From NCBI GenBank assembly GCA_963555755.3, contig OY820905.2:960001-1024000 (forward strand): DNA of 64,000 nucleotides. The letters are read 5' to 3'. Positions 25,682 to 50,492 of this stretch are shown in pieces (position 1 is the first letter of the stretch; each line of letters begins with the position of its first letter). The DNA is from Nitrospirales bacterium. GTDB taxonomy: Bacteria; Nitrospirota; Nitrospiria; Nitrospirales; UBA8639. The position numbers were made by a program, and so were the translations under genes. Below the pieces are notes generated by a model. That model had not been told where the DNA came from and did no database searches. It was given only the letters and a program-made list of their open reading frames with translations.

Positions 25682-27417
25682 AAACGCATGTATCAAAGGT
25701 GAATGTTGAAAAAAGCCGCCAGCGGCGTCCTTTGTAGACGTGAAGCGTGAACCGTGAGGCGTGAAGCGTATACTGGGAAAGGTGAAGAGTGACGGGTAAA
25801 AACATTTCTTTACTCTTTACTCTTTACTCAACACCCATTACGCTTCACCCATTACGAATTTGGCCTTGCTGGATAGACCCTTCGAAAGACTCAGGCAACT
25901 GTTTTTATGCTAATAGGGGCAAAACACATTAATGATGTACATACTATTTTTACTTGAAATTTAAACATGATAATGATATTTTACCCTAAAAAATACACAA
26001 AAAATGTATCTGCTATACTTATATTTAACCTTATCATATAACCCTCAGGGCCATTTCATTCTTTTTATAAGCAAGGGATTCCATGAGGTTTTTTGTGCGC
26101 TCTTTTTCAGGGCAGGGCCATGCGGATGAATAAATGGGGCTTGCCCCAGAGCAGTCTACACGCCTGCGCGATATTGGTGTAGCCTTTCAGGCGTAAGAGA
26201 CTGATGGCATAGCGTCTCAGACAGGTCATGACCATTGGGCCATTGAGACTTCGTATCTGACTCCTGTCTTCATCAAAGGTGACGTCCAACACATAGTGCT
26301 GCTTATTCTCCACACTCCCATGCTTTCGGTTTTGCGAGAGGATGGTCTTCGGCCCGTCTTGTCTTTGGACTGACTCGTGACACCGCAGACCGCTTCGACG
26401 GTCGTGAGGCCCTGCTTGAGATGCGTCACTTCCCTCTCAATGCAGAAGACTTGCTGGACATGAGGAAAGTTGCCATAGGCATTCAGGGAGTCATCGCACC
26501 AGATCCTGCGGGTCGTGATCTGCCCATGGCCTTTCTCGGTGGTGGCATAATCACACCGGCGTGCTCGCAACGCCAAGGCCTCAATGTCGTGCTTCAAGGT
26601 GGGCTGGTTTCCCTTGACGGTGAAGACGAAGTCGGCGCCGCGTTCGTGCACCAGGTACTCGGCAATCTCTTTCTGGGTGAGGAGCGCATCCGCCGTGATC
26701 ACCTTCCCTGCGATCTCGAGCGCATCTAACAGGGGCCGCACGCAGGGGATCTCATTGGTCTTGGAGTGAACTTTTTTTGGGTGAGGTGGCGCCCGGCTTG
26801 ATGGGTGACGGCGCTGAGGACATGGGGCTGTTCGCTTGGGACCTTCGACGTCCCCCGCATGGTCTTCCCATCAATGGCAATGCCCTGATCCTCCCCGCCG
26901 AAGGTGTCCAGCCACCGGCCGAGCAGGGTATCGACTTCACAGGGGTCGACGGCCGTGATAAAGCGGTAAAGAGTGCTGCGGCTCGGGACGAGGTAGCGCC
27001 CCCCTCGCTGAGTACCGCCTAGCCGCTTGCGCATCGGCTGCGATAACGGCTGGGCCCAGTCCGAGATCGCTTCCTAGCCGCGCGCGCCGCACAAGGTGGC
27101 ACAGCACATGATCGCCGTGAGGGCGCGTCGGGTGTGCCGTTGCCCTTGCAAATGGCGGGGATCGGTCAGCTGCACCACATACGTAAAGAGGGAGTCCGTC
27201 TGCTTGGCATTCAATCGCATCTGAGGTACCGCTCCTTTCTGATAGGTCGGATCAAGCATGGGGTGTGCCAGGATCGCTCGGGCTTGGGGATGGAGACTCC
27301 TGACCAGGATACGTTTTGGGCGGTCATGCGGCACATACCGTCTCTTGGCCTTGCGAAACCCTCGGGTCAGCCCGAGCTCGTGCCAGCCGGCGGCTCGCTA
27401 GCAGGTCCCGGTGAAGC

Positions 27418-29320
27418 CAGGGCTATTTCATATTAAAGTGTAACTTTATAGATAATAAGGAATAATCGATTTAGGCTGGCTTTTTCTTTTCGTTTACGGC
27501 ATACTCTTTTGCATGCCAGACGAATCGCCAAGCGGACAGCCGGACATTGATCTGAGGCAAGTCGTGGTTCGCCCAATTGTCCGAGACGAAAAGGACGCCT
27601 TCAAGACCCTTCTCGACAGACACCACTACCTCGGTCATGCCCCGCTGATTGGCCAATCGATACAATATCTCGCCTGTGTGCAGGATCGCTGGCTGGCCTT
27701 GCTGGTGTTTGCGGCGGCGGCCCTCAAATCGAGACCGCGAGACCACTGGATCGGCTGGCCCCCCTGTTTTCAATGGCAACGACTCCATTTACTGGCCAAC
27801 AACACCCGGTTTCTCATGCTGCCGGGCTGTTCGCAAAAGAACCTCGCCTCGAAAGTCCTGTCGCTCTGCGCGAAACGGATCTCGGCCGATTGGCAACTGT
27901 ACCACGGCTACCCCTTGCTCCTCTTAGAGACCTTCGTCGATCCTGCCCGCTTCACCGGGACCTGCTATCGGGCCGCCGGGTGGCACGAGCTCGGTCTGAC
28001 ACGAGGGTTTCGCAAGTCGAACACGTGTTATGTTCAGCATGAGAGACCGAAGCGCATCCTAGTCGTGCGGCTGCATCCCCAAGCCCGAGAGATCCTTGCA
28101 CGCCCGATGCTTGATCAGCCCTATCAGAAAGGAGAAGCGCCTCAGATGAGATTGAATACAAAACAGACGGACTCCCTCTTTACGTATGTGGTGCAGCTGA
28201 CCGATCCCCGCCATTTGCAAGGGCAACGGCACACCCGACGCGCCCTCACGGCGATCATGTTCTGTGCCACCTTGTGCGGCGCGCGCGGCTATGAAGCGAT
28301 CTCGGACTGGGCCCAGCAGTTATCGCAGCCGATGCGCAAGCGGCTAGGCTGTACTCAGCGAGGGGGGCGCTACCTCGTCCCGAGCCGCAGCACTCTTTAC
28401 CGCTTTATCACGGCCGTCGACCCCTGTGAAGTCGATACCCTGCTCGGCCGGTGGCTGGACACCTTCGGCGGGGAGGATCAGGGCATTGCCATTGATGGGA
28501 AGACCATGCGGGGGACGTCGAAGGTCCCAAGCGAACAGACCCACGTCCTCAGCGCCGTCACCCATCAAGCCGGGCGCCACCTCACCCAAAAAAAGTTCAC
28601 TCCAAGACCAATGAGATCCCCTGCGTGCGGCCCCTGTTAGATGCGCTCGAGATCGCAGGGAAGGTGATCACGGCGGATGCGCTCCTCACCCAGAAAGAGA
28701 TTGCCGAGTACCTGGTGCACGAACGCGGCGCCGACTTCGTCTTCACCGTCAAGGGAAACCAGCCCACCTTGAAGCACGACATTGAGGCCTTAGCGTTGCG
28801 AGCACGCCGGTGCGATTATGCCACCACCGAGAAAGGCCATGGGCAGATCACGACCCGCAGGATCTGGTGCGATGACTCCCTGAATGCCTATGTCAACTTT
28901 CCTCATGTCCAGCAAGTCTTCTGCATTGAGAGGGAAGTGACGCATCTCAAGCAGGGCCTCACGACCGTCGAAGCGGTCTGCGGTGTCACGAGTCAGTCCA
29001 AAGACAAGGCGGGGCCGAAGACCATCCTCTCGCAAAACCGAAAGCATTGGAGTGTGGAGAATAAGCAGCATTATGTGTTGGACGTCACCTTTGATGAAGA
29101 CAGGAGTCAGATACGAAGTCTCAATGGCCCAATGGTCATGACCTGTCTGAGACGCTATGCCATCAGTCTCTTACGCCTGAAAGGCTACACCAATATCGCG
29201 CAGGCGTGTAGACTGCTCTGGGGCAAGCCCCATTTAGCCATCCGCATGGCCCTGCCCTGAAAAAGAGGGCACAAAAAACCTCATGGAATCCCTTGCTTAT
29301 AAAAAGAATGAAATGGCCCG
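27418..29320 (+). mobile_element. ISAs1-family IS with N-terminal DUF4338 fusion (ORFs 27513-28640 and 28625-29260)
   Basis: CAGGG ends; 10-bp TSD CCGGTGAAGC; IDGKT.RG, KTNEIP, ADAL..Q, VKGNQ and HW.VEN..HYVLDV.F.ED motifs. Confidence 0.95.
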
Positions 29321-29330
29321 CCGGTGAAGC

Positions 29331-31234
29331 CAGGGCTATTTCATATTAAAGTGTAACTTTATAGATAATAAGGAATAATCGATTTAGGCTGGCTTTTTCT
29401 TTTCGTTTACGGCATACTCTTTTGCATGCCAGACGAATCGGCAAGCGGACAGCCGGACATTGATCTGAGGCAAGTCGTGGTTCGCCCAATTGTCCGAGAC
29501 GAAAAGGACGCCTTCAAGACCCTTCTCGACAGACACCACTACCTCGGTCATGCCCCGCTGATTGGCCAATCGATACAATATCTCGCCTGTGTGCAGGATC
29601 GCTGGCTGGCCTTGCTGGTGTTTGCGGCGGCGGCCCTCAAATCGAGACCGCGAGACCACTGGATCGGCTGGCCCCCCTGTTTTCAATGGCAACGACTCCA
29701 TTTACTGGCCAACAACACCCGGTTTCTCATGCTGCCGGGCTGTTCGCAAAAGAACCTCGCCTCGAAAGTCCTGTCGCTCTGCGCGAAACGGATCTCGGCC
29801 GATTGGCAACTGTACCACGGCTACCCCTTGCTCCTCTTAGAGACCTTCGTCGATCCTGCCCGCTTCACCGGGACCTGCTATCGGGCCGCCGGGTGGCACG
29901 AGCTCGGTCTGACACGAGGGTTTCGCAAGTCGAACACGTGTTATGTTCAGCATGAGAGACCGAAGCGCATCCTAGTCGTGCGGCTGCATCCCCAAGCCCG
30001 AGAGATCCTTGCACGCCCGATGCTTGATCAGCCCTATCAGAAAGGAGAAGCGCCTCAGATGAGATTGAATACAAAACAGACGGACTCCCTCTTTACGTAT
30101 GTGGTGCAGCTGACCGATCCCCGCCATTTGCAAGGGCAACGGCACACCCGACGCGCCCTCACGGCGATCATGTTCTGTGCCACCTTGTGCGGCGCGCGCG
30201 GCTATGAAGCGATCTCGGACTGGGCCCAGCAGTTATCGCAGCCGATGCGCAAGCGGCTAGGCTGTACTCAGCGAGGGGGGCGCTACCTCGTCCCGAGCCG
30301 CAGCACTCTTTACCGCTTTATCACGGCCGTCGACCCCTGTGAAGTCGATACCCTGCTCGGCCGGTGGCTGGACACCTTCGGCGGGGAGGATCAGGGCATT
30401 GCCATTGATGGGAAGACCATGCGGGGGACGTCGAAGGTCCCAAGCGAACAGACCCACGTCCTCAGCGCCGTCACCCATCAAGCCGGGCGCCACCTCACCC
30501 AAAAAAAGTTCACTCCAAGACCAATGAGATCCCCTGCGTGCGGCCCCTGTTAGATGCGCTCGAGATCGCAGGGAAGGTGATCACGGCGGATGCGCTCCTC
30601 ACCCAGAAAGAGATTGCCGAGTACCTGGTGCACGAACGCGGCGCCGACTTCGTCTTCACCGTCAAGGGAAACCAGCCCACCTTGAAGCACGACATTGAGG
30701 CCTTAGCGTTGCGAGCACGCCGGTGCGATTATGCCACCACCGAGAAAGGCCATGGGCAGATCACGACCCGCAGGATCTGGTGCGATGACTCCCTGAATGC
30801 CTATGTCAACTTTCCTCATGTCCAGCAAGTCTTCTGCATTGAGAGGGAAGTGACGCATCTCAAGCAGGGCCTCACGACCGTCGAAGCGGTCTGCGGTGTC
30901 ACGAGTCAGTCCAAAGACAAGGCGGGGCCGAAGACCATCCTCTCGCAAAACCGAAAGCATTGGAGTGTGGAGAATAAGCAGCATTATGTGTTGGACGTCA
31001 CCTTTGATGAAGACAGGAGTCAGATACGAAGTCTCAATGGCCCAATGGTCATGACCTGTCTGAGACGCTATGCCATCAGTCTCTTACGCCTGAAAGGCTA
31101 CACCAATATCGCGCAGGCGTGTAGACTGCTCTGGGGCAAGCCCCATTTAGCCATCCGCATGGCCCTGCCCTGAAAAAGAGGGCACAAAAAACCTCATGGA
31201 ATCCCTTGCTTATAAAAAGAATGAAATGGCCCTG
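29331..31234 (+). mobile_element. Second tandem ISAs1/DUF4338 copy (ORFs 29426-30553 and 30538-31173)
   Basis: Near-identical to 27418-29320; CCGGTGAAGC on both sides. Confidence 0.95.
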
Positions 31235-31827
31235 CCGGTGAAGCGGGCAGGGTCGACGAACGTCTCTAAAAGGAGTAAGGGGTAGCCATGACACTGTTGC
31301 CAATCGGCCGCGATCCGTTTCGCGCAGAGCGCCAGGACTTTCGAGGCGAGGTTCTTTTGCGAGCAGTCCGGCAGGATGAGAAACCGGGTGTTGTTGGCCA
31401 GTCAATGGAGGCGGTGCCAGTGAAAACAGGGAGCCCAGCCGATCCAGTGGTCGCGCGGTTTCGATTTGAGGGCCGCCGCCGCAAACACCAGCAAGGCCAG
31501 CCAGCGATCCTGCACACAGGCGAGATATTGGATCGAGGGGCCAATCAACGGGGCCGGGCCGAGGTAGTGATGTCGGGCGAGGAGGGACTTGAAGGCGTCC
31601 TGCTCGTCCCGGACAATTGGGCGAACCACGACTTGCCTCAGATCAATGACCGGCTGTCCGCTGGGCGATTCGTCTGGCATGCAAAAGAGTATGCCGTAAA
31701 CGAAAAGAAAAAGCCAGCCTAAATCGATTATTCCTTATTATCTATAAAGTTACACTCTAATATGAATTAGCCCTGTATAACCCTATTGTCTGGCATACGA
31801 AAACCTTCAAATGGAGCCTATACCCTC

Positions 31828-34368
31828 ATGCGCTTTCCCGCTTCGGCCCCTCAGCCGAGATTCGTACATCCCATGCTATTCAGATTTGCAAGGCCCGCCA
31901 CAGCAGCCCGTCATCGGCTTCGTCACCGAGCCACAATAGCGTTCAGCCTCTTACTATTGAGCTTGCTGCTGCCAGGGGGGCACGTGCTGGCTCGGGATCT
32001 GCCCTCCGTCCAGCTGATCGCCGCGTCGGCTGATTCTGCGGAGGCGCATGTAGATCTGTCCACGCCGATCGCTATTTCCTCTAGGCCCAAATGGACCGGC
32101 TATCTGGAATTCCTCGGCAAACCGGGCACGGCCCGCAGCATCGGGCAGCCCGACCTCTTTCTCCCCGTGCTCCAGGATGCCAACGACCTGACCTTCTTCA
32201 ACCTGCGTGGCCAATTGCAGTTTGATCATACCGACAACAGCGAGTACAACGTCGGTCTCGGCCATCGCCATATGTTTCAGGAGTGGATCTTCGGGGGCTA
32301 CGGCTACTTTGACCATCGTAACACCCAATACGGCAGTCAGTTTAATCAGTTCACCGGTGGGCTGGAAGCCTTAAGCGTCAACTGGGCCATGCGCGTCAAC
32401 GGCTATCTCCCCGAAAACAAGACCACCACCTTCACCGGCGATGCGAACATGAGCGTGATTACCCCCGGCGATCAGATCAAAATCCAGGTCAACGGACTCA
32501 TCCAGGAAAAAGCGTTGCCGGGGGTGGATGGGGAGGTGGGCTACATGCTCCCGCTGCCGTGGGCGACGGACGACCAACTGATTCACGAAACCTGGCTGTT
32601 TGTGGGGGGCTATCACTTTTTTGGGCAAGACCAGTTTGCGTCGATCTCGGGTCCGCGGGGGCGGCTGGAAATGCGGATCTATGATCTTCCCGTGCTGGGC
32701 CCGGGCTCGCGGTTTATGATGGGGGTGGAGGGGCAATACGACGAGCCGCGGGGCGGCCAGGCCTTCGGGCTGGTGTCGTTGCGGATCCCGTTCGACGTGT
32801 TTGCGGACACGAGCCGTCGGCGGGCGCTGACCGGGCTGGATCGCCGGATGGTGCAACCAATCATTCGGGACGTGGATGTGGTGGCCGGGGAGGTGGATAT
32901 GCCGATGGAAACGTTGCCGGCGCTGAATCAAGCAGGGGACGCGTATACGAAATACGTGGAGGTGGATGTCACGGATCAAGCGGAGGTGCAGGGGGCGCTG
33001 AATACTGCCAACGACCCGGCGGAGGTCACCCTGATTATCCCCAAAATGAATGGCGGGACGATCTCGCTCGACAGCCTCCTGACCCTGCACGAGGGCCAAA
33101 CGCTGGGGGGTGAGAATTTGACCGTGTCTTATAATAGTTCGACGCTGGGGTTCGGCAAGATCGGGTATAACCCGGGTGGGGCGATAGCCGGGTTAAAGGC
33201 AAGCGAAGTTTGGGTGGGGAATCGTCTGATTGACATGGCGCCTGACACTGAAATCAACGGGCTGACGCTGGATGCGACCGAGAAACCAGACTACGTCTTG
33301 CGGGTTAATATGACTGGCAACAAGGATGCCCCGGGGACCCGGTGGGTGGCCTATAGCCACCTCAAAGATTCCGTGGAGCAGGTCCTCTGGGCCCGAGGCC
33401 TTGGCGCCGACATCAGAATTGACTACAGTCGGATCTCTGGTGGTCTGAGAGGCGTTCAGCTCTGGGAGGCCACGGTTCACATCAGCAATAGTCGCATCTA
33501 TGACAATGATCAGCAGGGCCTAGTGGGCTACAAGGATAGTCAGCTAACAGTCTCTGACAGTCGCATCTATGACAACGGTACCGATGGAATAGAAGTCTAT
33601 AACGGTGCCACGGCCAACATTTTTAGAAGTTATATCTACGACAATGGTCACCGTGGCGTAGACAGCCACAGTGGCGGTACCACTATCAACATCTTTAATA
33701 GTTATATCTATGACAATAGTCACGAAGGCGTATTCGTCACCGCTGGCGCCATGGCGAATATCGAGGACACCATCATTACTCAGAATGGGTGGGACGGCGT
33801 GAGTACCTACATTGGTGCCAATTTCCTCGCGGGTAATATCAGCATCAAAAGGAGCGTCATCTCCAACAATGGCCGCTATGGCGTAGCCTCCCGATATGGG
33901 AGCACCGTGACTATCGAGGACAGTGTCGTGACCGGCAATGGATACTATGGTCTGCTCGCGGAGTCGTGGGCGGGCGACGTGTTGCCGGTTGACGGGTCGG
34001 GGGGCAACCCGCCTTTGGGCCCTGAAAGATTTCAGGATCTCCCCAGCAGCATCCTCAAGGCTACGAATGTGATCGTATCCGGGAATGGCAGGAAGAAGGC
34101 CGGCGGCGGGTATGGCGTGCTCAACCGAGGTGGGGAGATAACGCTCATCCAGAGCCGGGTCTTTGACAATGAGGGTGAAGATTATCGGAATGAGGCAGGT
34201 CTCCTTCGCCAGGACAGCCCGGAGTTTGTGGATTTCCTAGGCAAAAGAGGGGATGACAACGATGGCTGTCTCCGGCACGATGGCACAATAACGGTCGATG
34301 GGCACTTAATTGGTGCCCCGCTCATTGTGCTCCCTGATCCTGGTTGTACGGTGTGGCCCTCCCCCTAA
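31828..34368 (+). CDS. Inverse-autotransporter beta-domain protein with right-handed beta-helix passenger
   Basis: NVGLGHR...GGYGYFD...Q.T.GLEAL...NGYLP, G.DGE.G, GQYDEPRG and RMVQPIIRD motifs, then tandem IYDN..G repeats. Start codon uncertain. Confidence 0.8.
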   Translation: MRFPASAPQPRFVHPMLFRFARPATAARHRLRHRATIAFSLLLLSLLLPGGHVLARDLPSVQLIAASADSAEAHVDLSTPIAISSRPKWTGYLEFLGKPGTARSIGQPDLFLPVLQDANDLTFFNLRGQLQFDHTDNSEYNVGLGHRHMFQEWIFGGYGYFDHRNTQYGSQFNQFTGGLEALSVNWAMRVNGYLPENKTTTFTGDANMSVITPGDQIKIQVNGLIQEKALPGVDGEVGYMLPLPWATDDQLIHETWLFVGGYHFFGQDQFASISGPRGRLEMRIYDLPVLGPGSRFMMGVEGQYDEPRGGQAFGLVSLRIPFDVFADTSRRRALTGLDRRMVQPIIRDVDVVAGEVDMPMETLPALNQAGDAYTKYVEVDVTDQAEVQGALNTANDPAEVTLIIPKMNGGTISLDSLLTLHEGQTLGGENLTVSYNSSTLGFGKIGYNPGGAIAGLKASEVWVGNRLIDMAPDTEINGLTLDATEKPDYVLRVNMTGNKDAPGTRWVAYSHLKDSVEQVLWARGLGADIRIDYSRISGGLRGVQLWEATVHISNSRIYDNDQQGLVGYKDSQLTVSDSRIYDNGTDGIEVYNGATANIFRSYIYDNGHRGVDSHSGGTTINIFNSYIYDNSHEGVFVTAGAMANIEDTIITQNGWDGVSTYIGANFLAGNISIKRSVISNNGRYGVASRYGSTVTIEDSVVTGNGYYGLLAESWAGDVLPVDGSGGNPPLGPERFQDLPSSILKATNVIVSGNGRKKAGGGYGVLNRGGEITLIQSRVFDNEGEDYRNEAGLLRQDSPEFVDFLGKRGDDNDGCLRHDGTITVDGHLIGAPLIVLPDPGCTVWPSP

Positions 34369-34373
34369 CGGGC

Positions 34374-34515
34374 CAATGGCATTCGGTTAAGGCGAAATCA
34401 CAAAAAATTATAAAAAGTAAAAAAATTTTATCCTAATAAAACAACATGTTATAAAAATAGAAAAAGTTAAAAGTATCGACTTTTAGGCGATTTTACGCTT
34501 AAGCGAATGCCATTG
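34374..34515. mobile_element. AT-rich IS4-type MITE (142 bp)
   Basis: TIR CAATGGCATTCG.TTAAG; 10-bp TSD CCTAACGGGC. Confidence 0.88.
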
Positions 34516-35381
34516 CCTAACGGGCCTCCCCAACGGGACGACCCGCGTGTCGTTTTCACGTCTGGTCGAGCACCGGCTACAGCCCTCCCTATCGTACAGG
34601 AGGACGGCCTGGGAACATGCTGCACCGATGTGCCAGCGGCCTCGGACCCACCTTTGGGCCGTGTGGCATGATACCCCTTGACCCTGAATGACTCACCGAG
34701 TTGTTACTGTTGGCGTGGCAACGGGAATAGGAATTGTAAAAGGCCTTTTTGAGTCAACAGCAAAGTGCCAAAGATCCCGTTGTGGGGTTAATCTCCCACC
34801 TCCAGAGCCTGCCAGGCGTGAGTTCACCCTGCGCGAAGGGCCTGACTGGCTCTTTTCCGGATCAATCTCAATTTTGGTGGAGGTAGGCTAAACTCTATTA
34901 CGCATGGCCCGTAGCACACGTTGTCCGTTGTCATTTCGACCCTTGGAGGAACTCTCCCCCATTCCAACCCGGGTCACGTTCTCTCGGGCCAAGAGATTTC
35001 TCCTTGCACTCAAAATGATAGAAGGGAGCCTTCTGGTTGTTCCTCCAACCAGACTTGCTTTTTATCCCTTCCCCCTCTTGTCATTTCGACCCTTGGGAGA
35101 AATCTCGCCATTCCCGCCACACCTGAACAGGCTGTGCCCCCTCAACACGATCCCCATGACCTGCGGCGGGCCATGGAATAGGTCCCAATTCCACCAAAAT
35201 TGCAACTGGTCCTCTTTTCCCATGAATCAGGCCCAGCATGTGGCTGGCCTGTCTGCCGTAGCCGCGCCGTCGGCAAAGCAACTATGGCGCGTCGGCGACC
35301 TGGCGAAGGCTGGCGGCTTTATTCAACATCCCCCCCCCACACCTAGTGAAGAGTCAACTGCCCGATTCAATTCCGACAGGG

Positions 35382-35665
35382 TTAACTGTTTTGTGACTGT
35401 TGCCTCAATTTGTTGATGGCTTTGTGGCGAAAGCAGTCGGTGGTGTGGTCGTTGACCATTCCGGTGGCTTGCATGAAGGCGTAGCAGATGGTGGTGCCGA
35501 CGAAGGAGAAGCCTCGTCGCTTGAGGTCTTTGCTCATCGCGTCGGATTCGGTGGTATGGGCAGGCACGTCTTGTAGAGATTTCCATCGATTGTGGATCGG
35601 TCGGCCTTTGACGAATTGCCAAATATATTCATCAAAGCTTCCGATTTCCTGTTGGGTGGCTAGGA
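35382..35665 (-). pseudogene. tag: 3' part of DNA-3-methyladenine glycosylase I, truncated by an IS4 end
   Basis: SF..YIW.FV, SKDLKRRGFSFVG.TICYAFMQATGMVNDH...CF. Confidence 0.9.
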
Positions 35666-35748
35666 CTGCCATTTCCCCATAAATAAAGACTGGACAATCT
35701 CATTCATCCTCCAGCAACGCGAACCCCAGGCACATGAACTAAAACTCC

Positions 35749-36747
35749 CCTGCATACCCGGTTGACACCACTAACCACAAGGGATAGTATTTAATGTACG
35801 TATGCGGCAATATCCGAGGACTATTGGAGAATTGCTAAAGCGTTTTCCGGACGAGGCATCCTGCCGTGATTATTTGGAAAAGATCCGGTGGCCAAGTGGA
35901 GTCCAATGTCCGCGATGTCAATCTCTGCGTCTGTGGAGGAGAATGAACCGCCCCGTTCTCAAGTGCGCTGATTGCGATTTCCAAATTTCTATCTTGGCTG
36001 GAACAATGTTCCAAGACACCAAAATTTCCCTGGCAATGTGGTTCCAAGCCATCTGGTGGCTCACGAATCAAAAAACGGGTATCAGTGCGATTGGCTTACA
36101 GCGGGCAGTGGGAATGACGCGCCACGAAACGGCATGGAGAATATTGCACAAACTACGCATCGCCATGGTTCGCCCCCATCAGGATCGTTTGTCTGGAGCA
36201 ATAGAGGTAGATGAAGTGTGCCTCGGTGGGGAAAACAATAAGCAGCTTATCGGAGTTGCTGCGCAAATTGATGGCAAGAAGACGGGCAGAATCCGCATGG
36301 AGAAAATTACCGATCGATCAGGCCCTGTACTACAGGGCTTTGTCGCAAAATACATCAATCCAGGAAGCACCGTCGTCACCGATGGACTGAATAGTTATTG
36401 GGGGGTGACGAATCAGGGCTATATTCATATGCCCATGAAAAAACCATATTCGTGGGAAGAAAAAGGGGGCGATGCCGATGAACTATTGCCGCGCGTTCAC
36501 CGGGTTGCCTCGCTCCTCAAGCGCTGGTACTACGGAACATATCACGGCAGAATTGATCCTATGAACCTGGATACCTATCTCAATGAATTCACGTTTCGAT
36601 TGAACAGACGCACCTCCACTTCGAGGGGCTTGCTTTTTTACCGTGTCCTTGAAAATGCCGTTGCCAAAGATCCCAGCCCCTATGCACCCCAAAAGATGCG
36701 CTAAGATACTACCCCTTGTATGTAGTGGCGTCAACCGGGTATGCAGG
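35749..36747 (+). mobile_element. IS1595-family element, transposase 35802-36704
   Basis: CPRC/C..C zinc ribbon; EVDE, TDG and YLNEF.FR.NRR motifs; TIR CCTGCATACCCGGTTGAC; 8-bp TSD (A/G)AAACTCC. Confidence 0.92.
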
Positions 36748-36881
36748 GAAACTCCGTATATCCCCGCCACAGGAGTTGATGACCTGGTGGCGGGTCGTTG
36801 TTACGTCCGAGATAGCCTCCGATCTTCGCAACCAGTCGCACCGCGTCACCCAACAGCAACGGAGGCTTCAATCGTTTTTTT

Positions 36882-39294
36882 GTAACTACTCAGGTCAATT
36901 TTCTATAGCCTGATTTTTTTCTGGACTAACGGCTCCACCCATGGCATAATCGGGGCCATGAATGAAGCGATTACATGTCAAGGTCGTCGCCTCCCCCAAT
37001 CTGATCTGTGCTGGTTACGCCATCTGGTTTGCCGGCACCCTGACTGGAGCCGCCATAAAATAACCCAGCATATTTGTCGGCACTGGGGCTGGCAGACCCC
37101 GTCCGGACAACTGAAAACCTTTGCCGCCCGCAGCATGATCGACAAACTCGAACATCGCGGGCTCCTGAAGCTGCCCCCGATTCGTGTCGCCTCTCGACGC
37201 AACATCTTCCCCCCTTTCCGAAAGGGGTTTATGCCTCCCGAAGCCCCGCACATCGACGCAGCTCTCAAGACCCTGACGCCCCTGTCCATTCATATTCCAA
37301 CCTCACATTCCTACGAAGCCAGTTGTGTGGGATATTACCTGAGCCACCATCACTACCTCGGGTTCACCCGAACGGTCGGTGAACATCTCAAGTACCTGGT
37401 GCGGGATCGCTCCGGGCAGGATCTGGCCTGCCTCCTCTTCGGTTCCGCCGCCTGGAAAACCACCCCGCGCGACACCTTTATCGGCTGGGAGCCGGACACC
37501 CGAGCCGCCAACCTCAACTTCATGACCAACAATACCCGCTTTCTCATCCTGCCCTGGGTGCGTGTGCCGCATCTGGCCAGCCATCTCCTGGGCCGGGTCA
37601 TGAGACGTCTCCGGCAGGACTGGATCGAGAAATACGGCCATCCCGTCCACTTGGTGGAGACCTTTGTGGAGCGAGACCGCTTCAAAGGTATCTGCTATCA
37701 GGCCGCGAACTGGCTCTATGTCGGGCAGACCAAAGGCCGGTCCCGGCAGGACCGTGACAAGGCTCTGCGCGTGCCGGTGAAGGCAATTTATCTCTATCCC
37801 CTCATCCGCCACTTCCGACAGGCCCTCTGCCGGAGCAAGCCATGACCTTCACCCGCGACGCACTCCTCATCCTGGCCAAGAGCAACCCCGAGGCGCTCGT
37901 CGAACTGATCCTGGCGCTGCAGGAACAGGGGCAGGCGCTGACCACGCATGTCACCGAACTGGCACAGCGGCTCGACCAACACAGTCGCAACAGCAGCAAA
38001 CCGCCCTCGTCCGATGGACCGGCCAAGCCCCGAACCAAGAGCCTGCGCATACCTTCCGGGAAAAAGCCGGGCGGCCAACAGGGACATGCCGGCCAGACGT
38101 TAAAACAGGTGGAAACCCCAGACCACCTGGTCCACCTGCCTGTTCACTCCTGTTCCTGCCATGCCGACCTCACCAACGAGACGGTCACCGGCTATGAACG
38201 CCGGCAGCTCTTTGAACTGCCGGAGCCAAAACTCGACGTCACCGAATATCGGGGAGCAATCAAAACCTGCCCCCAATGCGGCCGCTCGGTCACGGCGTCA
38301 TTTCCTGATGACCTGCCTGCGCCGGCACAGTACGGTCCCAGATTTCGCAGCCTCCTGGTCTACCTCCAGAACCAACAGTTGATCCCCTTACGCCGTGTCA
38401 GCCAGATGATGGCTGATCTGTATGGCGCCTCGGTCAGCGACGCCACCATTGACGAGGCCTCCCGCCGAAGTTATGAGCACCTCGCGCCGTTCGAGACTGC
38501 GGTCAAAGAAGCGCTCGGCAAGAGTCCCATCCTCCATGCCGATGAAAGCGGCGTCCGCACGGCCGGGACGCTCCACTGGCTCCACAGTGCCAGCACGGCC
38601 ACGTTGACCTTTTACGGTGTGCACGCCAAACGGGGAAGAGAGGCGATCGAGCAGTTCCAGATCCTCCCGGATTTTGCTGGCCGCCTGATCCACGATTTCT
38701 GGAAACCCTATCTCTCCTATGACTGTGCCCACGGCCTCTGTAACGCCCATCATTTGCGGGAACTCACGTGCCTGTTCGAGCAGCACGAACAACCATGGGC
38801 CAAACACATGTTTGACCTGTTGCTGACGATGAACGTGTTTGTCAGCAAGCAACTCGCACAGTTAACGGAAGAACAGAAAACCCCCTGGCTGAAACAATAC
38901 AGGGATCTTCTCACCCTCGGATGGCAGGCCAACCCCCTTCCGGCACCGCCACAGAAAAAGTCACGAGGCCGGCCCAAAAAGACCAAGGCCCAAAATCTCC
39001 TCACCCGTCTTGGCGAGCATGAAGCCTCCGTGCTCGCGTTCCTCCATGACAGACAGGTTCCCTTCACTAATAATCTGGCAGAACAGGATATCCGCATGAT
39101 CAAGCTCCGCCTCAAAATATCCGGGTGTTTTCGAACGCTTCAAGGCGCGAGGCAGTTCGCCCGCATACGAAGCTACCTTTCTACCGCGAGAAAGCAGGGC
39201 GGCAACATGCTGCAAGCCATTTCACAAGCCATGATCGGCCACCCCTTTATGCCTGCACAATTCACTACAAAGATCATCACACCTGAGTAGTTAC
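36882..39294 (+). mobile_element. IS66-family element with a DUF4338 ORF (36958-37845) coupled to TnpC (37842-39290)
   Basis: TIR GTAACTACTCAGGT; 8-bp TSD GTTTTTTT; SRNSSKPPSSD, HADES, C.AHHLREL and FTNN.AE.D.R motifs. Confidence 0.95.
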
Positions 39295-41209
39295 GTTTTT
39301 TTTAGCGTAGGCGTGCAAGGTCCGCAATTCAATGTCCGAGAACAGCACCTCGGCCGGCAATTCCGGGGTTTCTCTCCCCAGAAGGGTCATGAGCATAATC
39401 CGCCAGGCAATGACAAGGTTAATGGCAATCGCCCGACACAAACGTTCTGCACTCTCGTGAGCGATCTCCTCAATGCGACAGCCGGATTTCAGCACGCGGT
39501 GCCAGTCTTCGATACGCCATCGCAGAGCGTACCAGCGCAGGCACTGTTCGGCCTCCGCGGCCGAGGAGATATCGATCGTTGTCAGCAGGAACCACTCAAC
39601 GGGCTCAGCCGTTGCCGGCGGGTGCTCTTCCAGCGCATGAACCACCCAGATATCGATGGGTTCCTTGGCGGCGTGGTCGTGTGCCGGACGAAGTTGGATT
39701 CGCCTAGCGCGTACCGCCATATCCGCCGTACGCCCGGCCCGCTTGGGTCGAGCCTGTTGTTTGCTTCTCTTAGGCCGGGCGCTCTGTCGTGGGAGGTGTA
39801 CGCGAATCCGACTCTGAACGGGCGCCTGACGAATGGCGGTGAACAGTTTGAAGGGTTCTTCGGTGATGGTGCGGTTCTGCTTGGCACGGACCAGTAGGCC
39901 AACGCGAGGGTGTTGGCGTTGCTCGTCGAACATGTCGAAGAAGTCCGCTTCCCGGTCGCACACGTCGATCAGGCGCGTCTGAGGCATTTCGGACGCCAGT
40001 TCAACCAGATCGCGGTGCTGCGCAATCCAGTTGAAGGTCTTCTTCTCCTCGATCGGAATGGCGAACGCGGGCCGATCATCTTCCGGTGCTCTGCTTTTGG
40101 GGGCTGTGCACTGAGCACGCAGCACTCCCAAGGGTAGTCCGTTCGGGGCGATCGCCAACATGGAGTGCAAATGGAGTCCGCGGCTCTTTGCACCGGTCTG
40201 GTTGGTGCCAATCTCACCCAGCCCTTCACAGTGATCCAGGTTGGTGTATTCCAAATCGCTGCCGTCCTGCACACACAGCACGGTCTTTTGTCCCTTCATC
40301 CGCCGCACGGTGCGCCTGCGGTGCGGCCTCAGGATGTTGGGCATGGTGATTGCCGAGTCCTCCGGCTGGTCGATCATGCGGTAATAAGCCTTGACCGCCG
40401 CCCAATCGCCCTTGGCCACGCCGCTAAAGGCGCGGCCCGGCACTTCGGCTTTGGCTGCCGCCACGGTTACCAGCCTTTTGCTCAGCCGAGCATCGCCTAG
40501 GGGGGCGCCGCCGAACTCGTGTTCCGCCCAAAGATCTCCCCCCAAACCGTCTGCCGGATTCAACGGACTAAGCCCGGCATTCGGGGGCAACCCCATTCGC
40601 TCCCGAAAGTCGGTCTCGATGGGGTAGACATAAATCGCTTTGGCGCTCAGCGCCGACTGTTTGAAGCGATCTTGTCTGCCGCGCCCCTTGGTCTTCCCCA
40701 CCGCGATCCAGTTCGCCGCCCGATAGCAGGCCCCCGAATAGTGACGGGTGTCGACAAAACTCTCGACCAACCAGGGCTTATAGCCGAACTGGCGCTCAAA
40801 ATCATCGGGCAAAGTCGCAAGACTCATACTCAGCACTTTCGAAGCCAGGTTGCGGCATGGCACGCTCGGACGAAGCAGAAAACGGCTCATCCCCACCACA
40901 CAATGCAGATGGGCTCGGCGCTGCTCGGCATCCCAGCCGATCCACGTGTCACGGTCGGCCAGCTGCAGAGCCGCTGCGGCAAATCCAAATCCGCCCAGCC
41001 AACCATGGTGTGACCCGATGAGGTAGCGCAGCTGCCGCCCGACGAGAGGCCCCGCCCCTTGAGGATGTTCGTTGATCATCAGCTCATTCCATATCCGCAT
41101 CTGCTCGGATGTGCTCACCCGTACCAGCTCCAATCCTTGGACCTTCCCGGCTTGAGACGGAACCGCTACGGCCAAAGGTACCGGCGCCAATAAACGCCGG
41201 GGAGAACTG

Positions 41210-42585
41210 TGTAGTGGTCTAGTTGAATGGGACACCTGGAAAAGGGACAATACCCATCAGGAGGGGTTCAATGGAAACAAGACGACGACAGTACACAGCC
41301 GCGTTCAAGCGCGACGCCGTGGCCCTGGTTATGGAACAAGGCTATACCCTGACCCTAGCCGGCCAGAATTTAGGGATCACGGCCAAATTGCTCTCGCGCT
41401 GGAAGCGCGAACAGCAGCACCATCAGGACGCGGCCTTCCCCGGCCAGGGGCATCAGACGCCCGAGCAATCCGAATTACGCATGTTACGCGAGGACAATCA
41501 GCGCCTACGGATGGAGCGCGACATCTTAAAAACAGCGACGGCCTTCTTCGCCACCCACAACATCTGAGATATCCCTTCATTCACCGTGAACGGCAGACGT
41601 ATCCTGTCCGGCTGCGCTGTGCCGTCTTCGAGGTGAGTGCCAGTGGGTATTATCGGTTTGTGCAACGTGGAGGAGGCCGGGCGCAGGCAGATCCAGCGCT
41701 GATTCTTCAGGTTCAGCAACTCCATCGGGCCTCTCGTCGCAGCTAGGGCTCGCGCCGACTGAGTCAGGCCTTGCAACAGGCTGGGCATGCGATCGGTCGC
41801 GATCGGACACGGACCCTGATGCGCCAGGCGAATCTGAAGCCCACGGGCACAGGGCGGTGTCCGCAGACGACGGATAGCCGCCATGCCTTGCCCCTTGCCC
41901 CTAATATACTCAACCGGCAATTTACGGTCGCGGCGCCTAATCGAGTGTGGGGCAGTGATATCACCGCCCTCTGGACCCAGGAAGGGTGGCTGTATCTCGC
42001 GATTGTGGTGGAGCTGTTTTCCCGCAAAGTCGTGGGCGGGGCCTGTGCGGCCTCCATGGCGACGTGCTGAGTCTCGCAGGCCTTGCAGATGGCCATGGGG
42101 CAACGTCACCCCAAGCCAGGGTTGCTCCATCACTCGGATCGCGGCAGTCAGTATGCCAGTGCGGAGTATCAACAGCAGCTCCGGAACGCCGAGATGGGGT
42201 GCAGTATGAGTCGGAAGGGCAATTGCTATGACAATGCGGTTGTGGAACGGGTATTCCGGAGCCTGAAAGAAGAAGGCTTCACGGAGGAACCACCCGACAC
42301 ACGGGCCGAGGCCACGCTAAGCGTGATTGATTACCTGGCGATGTTTTATAATAGTGAGCGGCTTCACTCGACCTTGGGCTATCAGAGTCCCAATACGTTT
42401 GAGGCACAGGCGGCGAAGACCGATCAAGGGAATACTCCAGTATCAACCAAACCGTGATCGGCCAGTGAGAGGCAAATAGGGACGACAAATTTTTCCCACA
42501 CCCAGGCCAAATCCTCAGCGAGGGCCGTCTGGGCTTATTCACACAATCCCCTTTTCTCCCTGTCCATTTTCACTGGACCACTACA
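41210..42585 (+). mobile_element. IS3-family element, decayed (orfA 41271-41567; orfB with stops)
   Basis: TGTAGTGGTC...GACCACTACA ends; W.SDIT, HSDRGSQY and GNCYDNA motifs. Confidence 0.92.
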
Positions 42586-42638
42586 TGCGGTCAAATCTTT
42601 GGTTGAGAGTTTCAGATGGAAAGAGGGAGACTATTCGG

Positions 42639-42776
42639 ATGCCCCGACCTCTCCGCATCGAATATCCGGGCGCGGTCTATCATGTAATGAACCGTGGGCT
42701 AGCCCGACCGCCGGTCTTTCGCGACCCCACCGATTATGACGCCTTTCTTCGGGTGTTGAGTGAGACCCAGAATTAG
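42639..42776 (+). pseudogene. REP-associated tyrosine transposase (RAYT) N-terminal fragment
   Basis: MPRPLRIEYPGAVYHVMNRG. Confidence 0.85.
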
Positions 42777-42890
42777 GGACACTGATAAGTTAATAACTTA
42801 ATGGACAACGAGAGGCGACCGGGGCATCGTCCGGACGATGCCCTGACAAGGACGACTGTCCATTGTGGGCAGCAGCTACCACGTGAGGGG
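42774..42890. repeat. IS-end-like ~110-bp repeat; second copy at ~47183-47297
   Basis: TAGGGACA..GATAAGTTAATAA.TTAAT...CCATTGTGGGC...CCACGTGAG is shared by both. Confidence 0.7.
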
Positions 42891-43730
42891 GCGTGGCCTG
42901 AAACGGCGGCGGCTCTGCAGTACGACGGACGAGAAAGAAGACCTGGTAGCAGGGCTGGCCATCGGCCTCCACGCCAATCATAGTCAATGTCTGGCCTGGG
43001 CGATCCTGCCCCATCATTACCACGGAAGGGGCTTGGGATTCCTTGATTGAATGTCTAACTTTGAGGATGGCGTCAGGATGAGAGAGGTCCATTGGACCAC
43101 ATATGAAGTTGGCCCGTTTATGGAATGAGGGTGGGCTTTGGTTACGGTTCACCATTCATGTATGAATACCCTGACCACATTGGAAAGAGCCGAACACTGT
43201 ATGAATGAATCCACTGTACCAATCAATCCACGAGGACAACTACCCAACGGCCGTCGCCTGGTCCGACTCCGAAAGACGATGGCGACAGGAATACTCTTTA
43301 TGGCGTTTGCTGGTGGGGTGGTCTTTGGCGGCTTACTTTTCCTGGCGGTGGCCCTCCTTTATGTTGGGGGCAGGATCTTCTGATTCGTGAGGTGAAGCAA
43401 TGGGATGTGGGATGGGAATCGGAGATTTCCATTTGGTTTGTAGGATCGGGATGTCTCCCTGGTGCCATTATCGGATGCCTACTCTGGAAGTATGGGGTAA
43501 TAAAATGGGGGTTACTGACCAAACAAGAATATCGAGAGATGGATTGGGCCACCAGTAAATGGGGAGCCCTAGGCGCCTGGAAAATACCACCGGAATCTTG
43601 GAAGGATGAAAATGAGGAAGAAGAAGATCCAGCCAACTACCCATTTTCCCAGCCACCCATACAGCAAAAATTCAACAAGGTAAAAAGCAGGATAAAAAAA
43701 GATTTTGACTTGGAAATAGGTACAATTGTA

Positions 43731-46143
43731 GTAACTACTCAGGTGTGATGATCTTTGTAGTGAATTGTGCAGGCATAAAGGGGTGGCCGATCATGGCTTG
43801 TGAAATGGCTTGCAGCATGTTGCCGCCCTGCTTTCTCGCGGTAGAAAGGTAGCTTCGTATGCGGGCGAACTGCCTCGCGCCTTGAAGCGTTCGAAAACAC
43901 CCGGATATTTTGAGGCGGAGCTTGATCATGCGGATATCCTGTTCTGCCAGATTATTAGTGAAGGGAACCTGTCTGTCATGGAGGAACGCGAGCACGGAGG
44001 CTTCATGCTCGCCAAGACGGGTGAGGAGATTTTGGGCCTTGGTCTTTTTGGGCCGGCCTCGTGACTTTTTCTGTGGCGGTGCCGGAAGGGGGTTGGCCTG
44101 CCATCCGAGGGTGAGAAGATCCCTGTATTGTTTCAGCCAGGGGGTTTTCTGTTCTTCCGTTAACTGTGCGAGTTGCTTGCTGACAAACACGTTCATCGTC
44201 AGCAACAGGTCAAACATGTGTTTGGCCCATGGTTGTTCGTGCTGCTCGAACAGGCACGTGAGTTCCCGCAAATGATGGGCGTTACAGAGGCCGTGGGCAC
44301 AGTCATAGGAGAGATAGGGTTTCCAGAAATCGTGGATCAGGCGGCCAGCAAAATCCGGGAGGATCTGGAACTGCTCGATCGCCTCTCTTCCCCGTTTGGC
44401 GTGCACACCGTAAAAGGTCAACGTGGCCGTGCTGGCACTGTGGAGCCAGTGGAGCGTCCCGGCCGTGCGGACGCCGCTTTCATCGGCATGGAGGATGGGA
44501 CTCTTGCCGAGCGCTTCTTTGACCGCAGTCTCGAACGGCGCGAGGTGCTCATAACTTCGGCGGGAGGCCTCGTCAATGGTGGCGTCGCTGACCGAGGCGC
44601 CATACAGATCAGCCATCATCTGGCTGACACGGCGTAAGGGGATCAACTGTTGGTTCTGGAGGTAGACCAGGAGGCTGCGAAATCTGGGACCGTACTGTGC
44701 CGGCGCAGGCAGGTCATCAGGAAATGACGCCGTGACCGAGCGGCCGCATTGGGGGCAGGTTTTGATTGCTCCCCGATATTCGGTGACGTCGAGTTTTGGC
44801 TCCGGCAGTTCAAAGAGCTGCCGGCGTTCATAGCCGGTGACCGTCTCGTTGGTGAGGTCGGCATGGCAGGAACAGGAGTGAACAGGCAGGTGGACCAGGT
44901 GGTCTGGGGTTTCCACCTGTTTTAACGTCTGGCCGGCATGTCCCTGTTGGCCGCCCGGCTTTTTCCCGGAAGGTATGCGCAGGCTCTTGGTTCGGGGCTT
45001 GGCCGGTCCATCGGACGAGGGCGGTTTGCTGCTGTTGCGACTGTGTTGGTCGAGCCGCTGTGCCAGTTCGGTGACATGCGTGGTCAGCGCCTGCCCCTGT
45101 TCCTGCAGCGCCAGGATCAGTTCGACGAGCGCCTCGGGGTTGCTCTTGGCCAGGATGAGGAGTGCGTCGCGGGTGAAGGTCATGGCTTGCTCCGGCAGAG
45201 GGCCTGTCGGAAGTGGCGGATGAGGGGATAGAGATAAATTGCCTTCACCGGCACGCGCAGAGCCTTGTCACGGTCCTGCCGGGACCGGCCTTTGGTCTGC
45301 CCGACATAGAGCCAGTTCGCGGCCTGATAGCAGATACCTTTGAAGCGGTCTCGCTCCACAAAGGTCTCCACCAAGTGGACGGGATGGCCGTATTTCTCGA
45401 TCCAGTCCTGCCGGAGACGTCTCATGACCCGGCCCAGGAGATGGCTGGCCAGATGCGGCACACGCACCCAGGGCAGGATGAGAAAGCGGGTATTGTTGGT
45501 CATGAAGTTGAGGTTGGCGGCTCGGGTGTCCGGCTCCCAGCCGATAAAGGTGTCGCGCGGGGTGGTTTTCCAGGCGGCGGAACCGAAGAGGAGGCAGGCC
45601 AGATCCTGCCCGGAGCGATCCCGCACCAGGTACTTGAGATGTTCACCGACCGTTCGGGTGAACCCGAGGTAGTGATGGTGGCTCAGGTAATATCCCACAC
45701 AACTGGCTTCGTAGGAATGTGAGGTTGGAATATGAATGGACAGGGGCGTCAGGGTCTTGAGAGCTGCGTCGATGTGCGGGGCTTCGGGAGGCATAAACCC
45801 CTTTCGGAAAGGGGGGAAGATGTTGCGTCGAGAGGCGACACGAATCGGGGGCAGCTTCAGGAGCCCGCGATGTTCGAGTTTGTCGATCATGCTGCGGGCG
45901 GCAAAGGTTTTCAGTTGTCCGGACGGGGTCTGCCAGCCCCAGTGCCGACAAATATGCTGGGTTATTTTATGGCGGCTCCAGTCAGGGTGCCGGCAAACCA
46001 GATGGCGTAACCAGCACAGATCAGATTGGGGGAGGCGACGACCTTGACATGTAATCGCTTCATTCATGGCCCCGATTATGCCATGGGTGGAGCCGTTAGT
46101 CCAGAAAAAAATCAGGCTATAGAAAATTGACCTGAGTAGTTAC
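43731..46143 (-). mobile_element. Second IS66/DUF4338 copy (ORFs 46067->45180 and 45183->43735)
   Basis: Same 2413-bp length and identical proteins; 8-bp TSD CAATTGTA. Confidence 0.95.
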
Positions 46144-47162: not shown

Positions 47163-47631
47163 CCTATTTTTAGGGACAGTTTTTAGGGACAAGGATAAGT
47201 TAATAATTTAATTGGCAGCGAGAGGTGACCGGGGTAGAGGACGGACGATGCCCCGACAAGGACGGCTGCCCATTGTGGGCGGCTGCTCCCACGTGAGTGT
47301 TTGGGGTTAGGTTTTTCAATACGACATACTTGGTAAAGGTAGCTGGAATCTTAATCGAAGTATTTTTGCCTGGGTTCGTCCAGGCAGCCGAGGCCCTTTT
47401 GTTTCGGCAAAAGGACCCAAAACCATTTCCACCCAGGTCGGCCACATTGAATCGTGCTGGCGCAGGCAACGGAAGGGCGCCCCAACTCGCAGGCTCAGAC
47501 AAGGGCCGCCCCTGGATTTGAGCGTCAGCCGGTGGGCCAACCTGCAGGCGGGGGGGTATCGTTTTTGGCCTTTTGCCTTACATGGAGTTTCTTGGCCATG
47601 GCGTTGCTTCCTGTGAGCGTTCTTGCTTGTG

Positions 47632-49665: not shown

Positions 49666-49850
49666 TCGCTGCAGCATCTCATGCTGCCTCTTCCTGGCGT
49701 CAGAGCCCCTTGGTCCGTGGGAAGAGGGCACGATACGATCGTGCAGCGACACAAGCAAGAAAGCTCACAGGAAGCAACGCCATGGCCAAGAAACTCCATG
49801 TGGCCAGAATTGGATGGCGGTAGGATAGAACCATATATTCTGTATGATCC

Positions 49851-50492
49851 ATCCTTACTCGCAGAGTCGGCCAGACCATCAGAATCGGAGACGACGTGTC
49901 CATTACCGTGCTCGGCGTTAAAGGCACTCAAGTAAAGGTCGGAATCAACGCACCAAAAACTCTTCCAGTACACCGCGAGGAAATCTACAGACGGATTCAG
50001 CGGGAGTTGAGCAGAAGCGGCAGAGTCAATCCCGCAAAAGCCATCAGGGGGTTGGTCAATATGGAAGAAGATGATTTCGATGAGTTCGTAGACACGGTTC
50101 AGGAAGTGACCAACAGGGGAATATCCATAGCTTGGACACCGGCTGGAAGCGACGACGTGTCGATCCAAACTCCTGTAGACGACGATGAAGCAAAATTGAT
50201 CGAAGACATAGCGGACCAATCGCAATTTTGGTGGAGTAAGACTACCTTGATCTATTTCTGCGCTGTCAATTGTGAGGAGGCTTTAAGCCAATCCCCCTTT
50301 CGCAAAGGGGGGCAGGGGGGATTTGAAGCGGGGCCAAGTGTGCGCGACACCCACGATAGTCAGAGGGAAAATCTCCCCCAACCCCTCTTTGTCAAAGAGG
50401 GGAGTTCATCCGACTTGGCTAGCCCGCATCGGTACGGCTCATCCGCGTTAATATCCTGCTGCTTCGTCATTATCCACAACATTTGCAACTGA
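49851..50492 (+). pseudogene. csrA: csrA lacking its start codons (found at 62129-62142), with a long C-terminal extension
   Basis: [36 protein letters not shown]...VHREEIY. Confidence 0.9.

Follow-up and report, generated by a model that had tools for sequence, protein, structure and literature searches.

We analysed a 64,000-nt stretch of the genome of a Nitrospirales bacterium (contig OY820905.2, positions 960,001-1,024,000 of the forward strand; hereafter the window), in which three types of insertion sequence (IS), ISAs1, IS66 and an IS50/Tn5-like element, each carry a domain of the Pfam family PF14236 (DruA/DUF4338). This domain, which with a likely promoter and usually a helix-turn-helix-like domain makes up a unit hereafter called the cassette, is a predicted GNAT-fold enzyme whose top structural match is Mom, the adenine-modifying protein of phage Mu. 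Its IS-borne copies point to a single clade swapped among nine transposase types, rather than to repeated capture of a free gene. We propose that the enzyme of the shared cassette attaches acyl groups to adenines of double-stranded DNA, at or close to the element that encodes it, and that this mark, supplied by the IS itself, gates or protects transposition. To this reading, which draws on sequence and structural models, we assign a probability of roughly 0.45; DNA adenine acylation in either form, local or genome-wide, we consider probable.

Pfam profile scans place PF14236 above cut-off in ISAs1 open reading frame (ORF) 1 (27513-28640, 95 bits), IS66 ORF1 (36958-37845, 113 bits), the IS50-like ORF (39277-41250, 121 bits) and a fragment at 31402-31680 (38 bits), while 29426-30553 and 45180-46067 are near-identical or identical further copies of ISAs1 ORF1 and IS66 ORF1. 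On the IS-borne proteins the match is partial, covering profile positions 45-228 of 297 at 95-121 bits. NCBIfam confirms the transposase types as ISAs1 (NF033564, 136 bits on ORF2), IS66 TnpC (NF033517, 295 bits, in an element with GTAA ends) and Tn5-type (NF033590, 292 bits, with Pfam PF14706 and PF02281). In all three IS types the domain sits within the inverted repeats, the boundaries being taken from genome copies. The elements share typical transposases, inverted repeats and target duplications with the ISAs1, IS66 and IS50/Tn5 families, and differ from them in an extra cassette of 200-290 amino acids (aa). The initial annotation of this stretch had reported the domain in three IS types and described its versions as diverged; both observations hold, pairwise identity among the versions being 34-43%.

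Fold, active site and selection

The IS66 element encodes the cassette as a free-standing protein of 295 aa (36958-37845, plus strand). A structure model built from a 143-row alignment reached pLDDT 90 (a single-sequence model, at only pLDDT 41, was set aside) and comprises a three-helix N-terminal domain resembling a helix-turn-helix (HTH; residues ~1-75), a linker and a GNAT domain (~105-290). Mom (PDB 8bv8) was the top match of this model both in Foldseek (E 1.5e-5) and in VIA-align (Z 14.0, root-mean-square deviation 3.7, 165 aligned residues), where the next GNAT scored Z 12.6. Profile-profile comparison of the IS profile with an 18-row Mom-family alignment gave a probability of 98.9 and an E of 1.4e-17. 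Viral contigs scanned with the IS alignment yielded Mom-family proteins, and all six that were tested pass PF25680, the Pfam Mom family. By sequence, the cassette protein had no match in the PDB; its N-terminal domain had none there either, and no named match in the Atlas. A predicted complex of TnpC with the cassette protein scored 0.00, an uninformative run.

Mom requires the active-site residues H58, Y59, R111, S124, D149, R151 and Y159 (PMC13219725). Across 166 IS-borne cores, the set that remained after three partial rows were dropped, counterparts mapped by sequence profile rather than by 3D residue overlay were found for H in 166, Y in 155, R in 166, S in 164, D/E in 162 and the last Y in 166, the genome loci having been sought with a pattern that already included this Y. 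In the IS66 protein they are H132, Y133, R194, S208, E238 and Y247. With Mom as top structural match, the profile E-value and an intact Mom-type active site, the Mom-like GNAT fold that the initial annotation had surmised is borne out. Cassette and Mom further share a similar C-terminal strand order. They differ in that the cassette lacks the HTH-like insertion of Mom (175-209), has an extra conserved RD..IGW segment, is joined to an N-terminal HTH-like domain or a transposase, and is IS-borne, Mom being a phage late gene. DUF4338 has already been called a GNAT, in DndF fusions (PMC10853773).

Sequence comparison supports purifying selection on the GNAT domain like that on the transposase. In ISAs1, dN/dS is 0.25-0.31 for the GNAT versus 0.21-0.25 for the DDE part (six in-genome comparisons to one reference, hence non-independent), and in IS66 it is 0.07-0.12 for the GNAT versus 0.08-0.18 for the transposase, with dS saturated. 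The relaxed dN/dS that had been named as contrary evidence was not seen.

The cassette stands apart from DruA of the Druantia type I defence system. The two belong to the same Pfam family and have the RD..IGW region in common, but DruA, at 380-410 aa, aligns over the entire profile, has neither the H nor the S of the Mom type and falls in a clade of its own. Against PADLOC DruA1 (PDLC00002) the cassette protein scores 17 bits over ~55 positions. Among 13 full-length PF14236 proteins, classed as DruA-type by sequence, the H and the S are each found in 0/13 and the R in seven; seven of these proteins score 280-606 bits on PADLOC DruA1. PF09369 (DUF1998), which we take to be the marker of the DruE helicase, had no match in the 99% complete genome, the positive control having rung in 8/14. 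DruB likewise had none, in a search whose control was silent too; DruC gave one weak match (E 3.5e-4) far off in the genome, and DruD was not searched. The earlier remark that the window holds no other Druantia gene thus extends, for PF09369, to the whole genome.

Descent of the cassette and its upstream signal

The cassette is widespread and keeps company with transposases. PF14236-domain relatives form at least 8,000 clusters at 90% identity, and at 50% identity the family, taken up to an E of 0.001, comprises 9,794 clusters, some of them DruA or Mom-like. ISAs1-form relatives make up 2,827 clusters, with PF13808 in 119/120 among the matches listed. Transposase-type Pfam domains occur in 117/120 longer homologues, and NCBIfam partners in 51 long proteins include IS50-type, IS4, IS701, IS630, ISAzo13, ISAs1 and IS66 transposases (18 were without a name and one was a reverse transcriptase). 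We examined 79 genome loci, drawn from the best 80 among 592 confirmed ones when these are ordered by their similarity to the IS66 ORF. A transposase adjoins the cassette gene in 73 of them, two others lying at contig edges and four lacking a match. The adjoining transposase is IS66 downstream in 51 loci and upstream in seven, ISKra4-like in seven, IS1182-like in four (both of these calls being below NCBIfam cut-offs), IS4 in three and IS50 in one. These counts bear out the association with DDE families described at the outset. A further 26 loci include 19 with a match to the transposase set and seven without. Eight cassette genes without a nearby match to this set (L045, L053, L095, L199, L200, L203, L211, L279) could be remnants, lie on other IS types or be domesticated copies. 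In two loci (L212, L216) the gene follows another DDE-like ORF type, recognized by eye, with a group II intron adjoining and a PF14236 score of 224 bits, far above other IS-borne copies.

The host genome (4.62 Mb) alone holds 76 cassette loci with four transposase types: 45 window-type ISAs1, one divergent ISAs1, 14 IS66, 14 IS4-type 790-aa fusions and two IS50-like. In 72 of these the domain is complete and free of stops, and cassette elements together occupy ~3.5% of the genome. Four other genomes, picked for having a match, contain 4-24 matches apiece. The IS66 element is also present whole in the assembly of a metatranscriptome run (X3), whose contigs cannot indicate transcription, strand or start.

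Phylogenies were computed with FastTree on 207 rows and with IQ-TREE (LG+G4) on a 53-row subset; the rows were gathered with IS queries, which would under-sample non-IS members, and the outgroups sit on long branches. FastTree places all IS-borne copies in a single clade (support 94), within which the partner family changes 13 times; DruA, Mom and the stand-alone phage GNATs fall outside it. IQ-TREE recovers the same clade (99/95) with 12 such changes and separates it from the DruA clade at 100/100; IS66-linked copies were monophyletic in 0/200 of its bootstrap trees. One IS-borne clade with at least 12-13 partner switches points to a single IS-resident cassette passed between IS families, and does not support the earlier idea that transposons repeatedly recruited a stand-alone enzyme.

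Nor did the cassette ORF replace tnpA/tnpB, as its position in the window had suggested to the initial annotation. In 17 related IS66 loci (16 above cut-off), tnpB lies directly upstream of the cassette gene, so that the cassette comes in addition to the accessory genes and is no stand-in for them.

The nearest non-IS relatives are stand-alone phage genes located near genes for a clamp loader, dNMP kinase, DNA methylase and dCMP deaminase. They keep the H, Y, R, S and Y and carry a long insertion at the place of Mom's insertion. On viral contigs of large phages (L151-L163), such PF14236 GNATs with Mom-type residues sometimes have a second PF14236 paralogue nearby, and they are candidates for a phage DNA modification so far off record.

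At many loci the cassette gene is preceded by a recurrent layout: a -35-like hexamer, 17 nt, a -10-like hexamer, 6-8 nt and the ATG. The score for this layout and its threshold (11) were devised in this analysis after the upstream regions had been inspected. The upstream set comprised 170 matches, among which 43 had no ATG in range, three were too short and 19 were duplicates; 97 non-redundant regions were scored. A score of at least 11 was reached by 50 of the 97, versus 4.2% of 6,448 ATGs elsewhere in these loci, and by 197 of 1,921 genome ORF starts that served as a comparison set. Shine-Dalgarno-like words precede 13 of the 97 starts versus 28% of ORF starts. The 65 regions scoring at least 10 have a 17-nt spacer in 56 cases, and their -35 hexamer is TGGACT in 31 and TTGCGT in 12.

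In the window, the IS66 signal (36922-36950, plus strand) reads TGGACT, 17 nt, CATAAT preceded by TG, 7 nt and ATG, and is also called by a consensus scanner. The ISAs1 signal (27477-27505, plus strand; score 10) reads TGGCTT, 17 nt, CATACT, 7 nt and the ATG of ORF1, without a Shine-Dalgarno sequence; at six further mobile-element starts of the window the score is 6-9. The signal also occurs between tnpB and the GNAT gene, and it tracks the GNAT tree across IS families, such that sister GNATs on different IS share a -35 type (L085/L065, L046/L029). We infer from these sequences that the cassette brings its own promoter and, in both window elements as elsewhere, a leaderless mRNA. We also considered that the enzyme might mark the -35 box of its own cassette in the Mom SAS context, and rejected this as a general rule: by inspection, TGGACT has this context and the CTTGCGTTC type has none on either strand.

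Proposed function and its rivals

If the cassette writes a local mark, a leaderless mRNA would begin at the ATG and also carry the transposase, whether fused, frameshifted or ATGA-coupled. Enzyme and transposase would be made together from this one mRNA, and read-through transcripts would be poorly translated. The acyl donor may be aminoacyl-tRNA, as for Mom, a dimer that depends on Gly-tRNA to modify dA in double-stranded DNA, or acyl-CoA. The N-terminal HTH-like domain, or the DNA-binding part of the transposase, might stand in for the HTH insertion of Mom and keep the activity local. We favour local over genome-wide modification on four grounds: Mom is toxic when overexpressed, this genome has 72 intact copies, the insertion of Mom is lacking, and the cassette is often fused. 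That the cassette is free in its position (fused, upstream or downstream) and changes partners is easier to reconcile with a substrate common to all, such as DNA, than with a contact fitted to one protein.

Host Dam, through its control of IS10/IS50 promoters and ends, offers the nearest working model. By analogy only, adenine modification would again be a possible gate on IS promoter and ends; Dam, however, is a host methyltransferase, whereas here the IS would bring its own acyltransferase. A bolder form of the proposal, which we advance tentatively, is that a portable epigenetic writer is common to at least nine types of transposase. It would consist of a leaderless promoter, an HTH-like domain and a Mom-type enzyme hypermodifying adenines of its own promoter or ends, and would time and shield transposition without a host methylase.

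Several observations weigh against a local DNA mark. As a separate gene product in IS66, the enzyme could act in trans. The Z margin of Mom over other GNATs is just 1.4, and fold similarity gives no substrate. Comparison of the IS-borne domain with Mu Mom alone (hhalign) was not significant, and Pfam Mom (PF25680) scores 19.1 and 16.2 bits, below its gathering cut-off of 27.1. Mom R151 has no sure counterpart: the aligned column is variable, with a conserved R one column further. Even within the 18 Mom-family rows, the R151 column holds R in just five. The HTH-like insertion, which is essential in Mom since its deletion abolishes activity (PMC13219725), is absent from the IS profile (a gap of ~25 residues), and HTH hints in the N-terminal domain are weak (3/38 rows). 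As for the upstream signal, the consensus scanner missed the ISAs1 site despite its identical spacing, just one of eight cores without an HTH-like domain reaches the threshold, and the SAS context of TGGACT is absent in the TTGCGT type. Inspection by eye revealed no motif that the ends of the different IS families share.

Adenines might instead be modified genome-wide, as by Mom, with the cassette serving as anti-restriction cargo that aids IS-bearing DNA in horizontal transfer. This alternative, which we hold to be unlikely, draws on the same fold and residue evidence and on the shielding of DNA from endonucleases by Mom (PMC13219725). It would also suit the stand-alone phage relatives among DNA-metabolism genes and the identical IS66 element found in sequencing runs from up to ten studies. 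Yet Mom overexpression is toxic (PMC7261163), while this genome tolerates 72 full-length, stop-free copies of the domain. Among 72,556 plasmid records, moreover, just two have a match, and among 50,697 phage records none does (both collections lean to cultured hosts), and Mom's DNA-binding insertion is absent.

Protein or tRNA could be acylated in place of DNA, for instance the transposase itself or a host factor limiting transposition. The substrate of a GNAT is not readable from its fold (PMC13219725), many protein and small-molecule GNATs come next at Z 11-12.6, the Mom insertion is missing, and translation alongside the transposase would go well with a protein as the target. We nonetheless give a non-DNA target a low probability: the conserved H-Y, R, S, D and Y are the Mom set, this R is conserved among Mom homologues and not across GNATs (PMC7261163), and nine unrelated transposase types would lack a common acceptor site.

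It is more improbable still that the GNAT fold is a non-catalytic, nucleic-acid-binding transposition helper, or a passenger retained for its promoter and start codon. The promoter-like signal does lie on the cassette and would drive the coupled transposase, and relatives such as IS50 are generally known to work without a cassette. Near-invariant catalytic-type residues in 166 cores and a transposase-like dN/dS speak against both roles, and the cassette also persists in the seven IS66 loci where it lies downstream of the transposase and supplies no promoter. Finally, a Druantia-type role in host defence, with the DruA homologue acting alone against phage, is highly improbable: PF14236 does score above cut-off, and there are DndF defence proteins with a fused PF14236-type GNAT (PMC10853773), but the DruA1 score, the separate clade, the H and S missing from full-length proteins and the genome without PF09369 all oppose it.

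Genomic setting and wider meaning

The six domain copies counted by the initial annotation are all present, four in intact elements (two ISAs1, two IS66) and two in relics. The older third ISAs1 copy (26046-31775, minus strand; 9-bp target duplication 26037-26045 / 31776-31784) is interrupted within the domain by a tandem pair (27418-31234). Its 3' part (26046-27417) retains the end of the GNAT domain and transposase fragments; its 5' part (31235-31775) holds the GNAT fragment at 31402-31680, terminated by an in-frame stop. The pair consists of copy 1 (27418-29320, plus strand, ORFs intact; 10-bp target duplication 27408-27417 / 29321-29330) and copy 2 (29331-31234, plus strand; ORF1 29426-30553, ORF2 ending at 31173), followed by a third target repeat (31235-31244). 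Such head-to-tail ISAs1 pairs, with only the target duplication between, occur in at least three places in the genome (window 27418-31244; contig C1 89411-93234 and 1120295-1124112).

In copy 1, ORF1 (27513-28640, plus strand, 375 aa) joins the Mom-type GNAT (residues ~14-198) to an N-terminal ISAs1 transposase part (PF13808). The catalytic part lies in the -1 frame as ORF2 (28588-29260, plus strand; NCBIfam, Pfam). An A7G slippery run (28588-28595, plus strand) is the -1 frameshift site required to join them, in a product of ~583 aa; the unshifted product would therefore be the GNAT plus the N-terminal transposase part. Of the fusion to ISAs1 transposase described for three copies, the N-terminal part is thus confirmed, while the catalytic part needs the shift and the third copy is broken. 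An A6-7G run occupies the same place in 16/16 related ISAs1 loci checked, and no stable stimulatory hairpin was found 3' of the run (z +1.2).

IS66 copy 1 (36882-39294, plus strand; 8-bp target duplication 36874-36881 / 39295-39302) lies inside the IS50-like element. It lacks tnpA/tnpB, as do IS66 elements that we take to be ISBst12-type, and its cassette ORF overlaps TnpC (37842-39290, plus strand, 482 aa) by ATGA. Copy 2 is identical (43731-46143, minus strand; 8-bp target duplication), with the signal at 46075-46103, the cassette ORF at 45180-46067 and TnpC at 43735-45183. A contig of another run (X1, record 1) bears both IS66 ends with 49 other letters between, a possible miniature inverted-repeat transposable element of IS66. 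Target duplications of 9-11 bp flank 28 of 37 full-length ISAs1 copies of the genome, and 8-bp ones 11 of 13 IS66 copies, which shows recent movement of both.

The IS50-like relic (39295-41209, minus strand) has its GNAT (~40660-41148) in frame with the Tn5-type transposase, the HTH-like start being lost. Its 5' end was removed by an IS3-family element without a GNAT (41210-42585, plus strand), so the TTG at 41250 is not the start of the ORF. IS66 copy 1 is inserted in its 3' A-run, and the 3' remainder (36749-36873, minus strand) is cut by IS1595 (35749-36748); these cuts by IS3, IS66 and IS1595 leave the element without both ends intact. Both genome IS50-like copies are 5'-cut by an adjoining IS3, at different points, and an A8 run near the 3' end of the transposase (window 39295-39302; C1 23176-23183) has the Tn5-type C-terminus in the -1 frame. 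A fourth cassette element, of IS4 type (2,582 bp; C1 575944-578525), has at least 11 further copies, inserts at G/C runs and often lies near palindromic repeats. Genome contig C2 (14 kb) begins within a copy of it, carries housekeeping-like genes and is probably a chromosome piece without placement. Elsewhere in the window are an 860-aa ORF with an inverse-autotransporter beta domain and a right-handed beta helix (31786-34368) and a multi-copy group II intron (47631-49900) with a reverse transcriptase/maturase ORF (47714-49075).

An association of Mom-like proteins with transposases was probably predicted in print already: the abstract of Iyer et al. 2009 (Cell Cycle 8:1698, a reference in PMC7824862) reportedly ties such proteins to diverse bacterial transposases and suggests transposon-encoded DNA modification. 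Our literature searches, whose coverage excluded Iyer et al. 2009 and 2013, found no publication on IS-borne DUF4338, and passages of PMC7824862 and PMC4738411 mention Mom in phage and bacterial genomes without transposases. New here are the single-clade swapping, the promoter cassette, the contrast with DruA and the coexistence with tnpB.

A PF14236 match is taken to indicate Druantia defence. Among 401 genomes of the host phylum, 50 have a match, which is full-length in 12 and only of the short IS type in 38. The 295-aa free-standing ORF, with its catalytic residues mapped, makes the question of function directly testable. If the enzyme modifies DNA, simple IS would make a base modification of their own, and thereby exert a kind of control over transposition for which host Dam has so far been the known case. 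If a portable writer is indeed shared among transposase types, it would amount to a widespread transposon-made DNA base modification, so far off record, in thousands of lineages of environmental bacteria.

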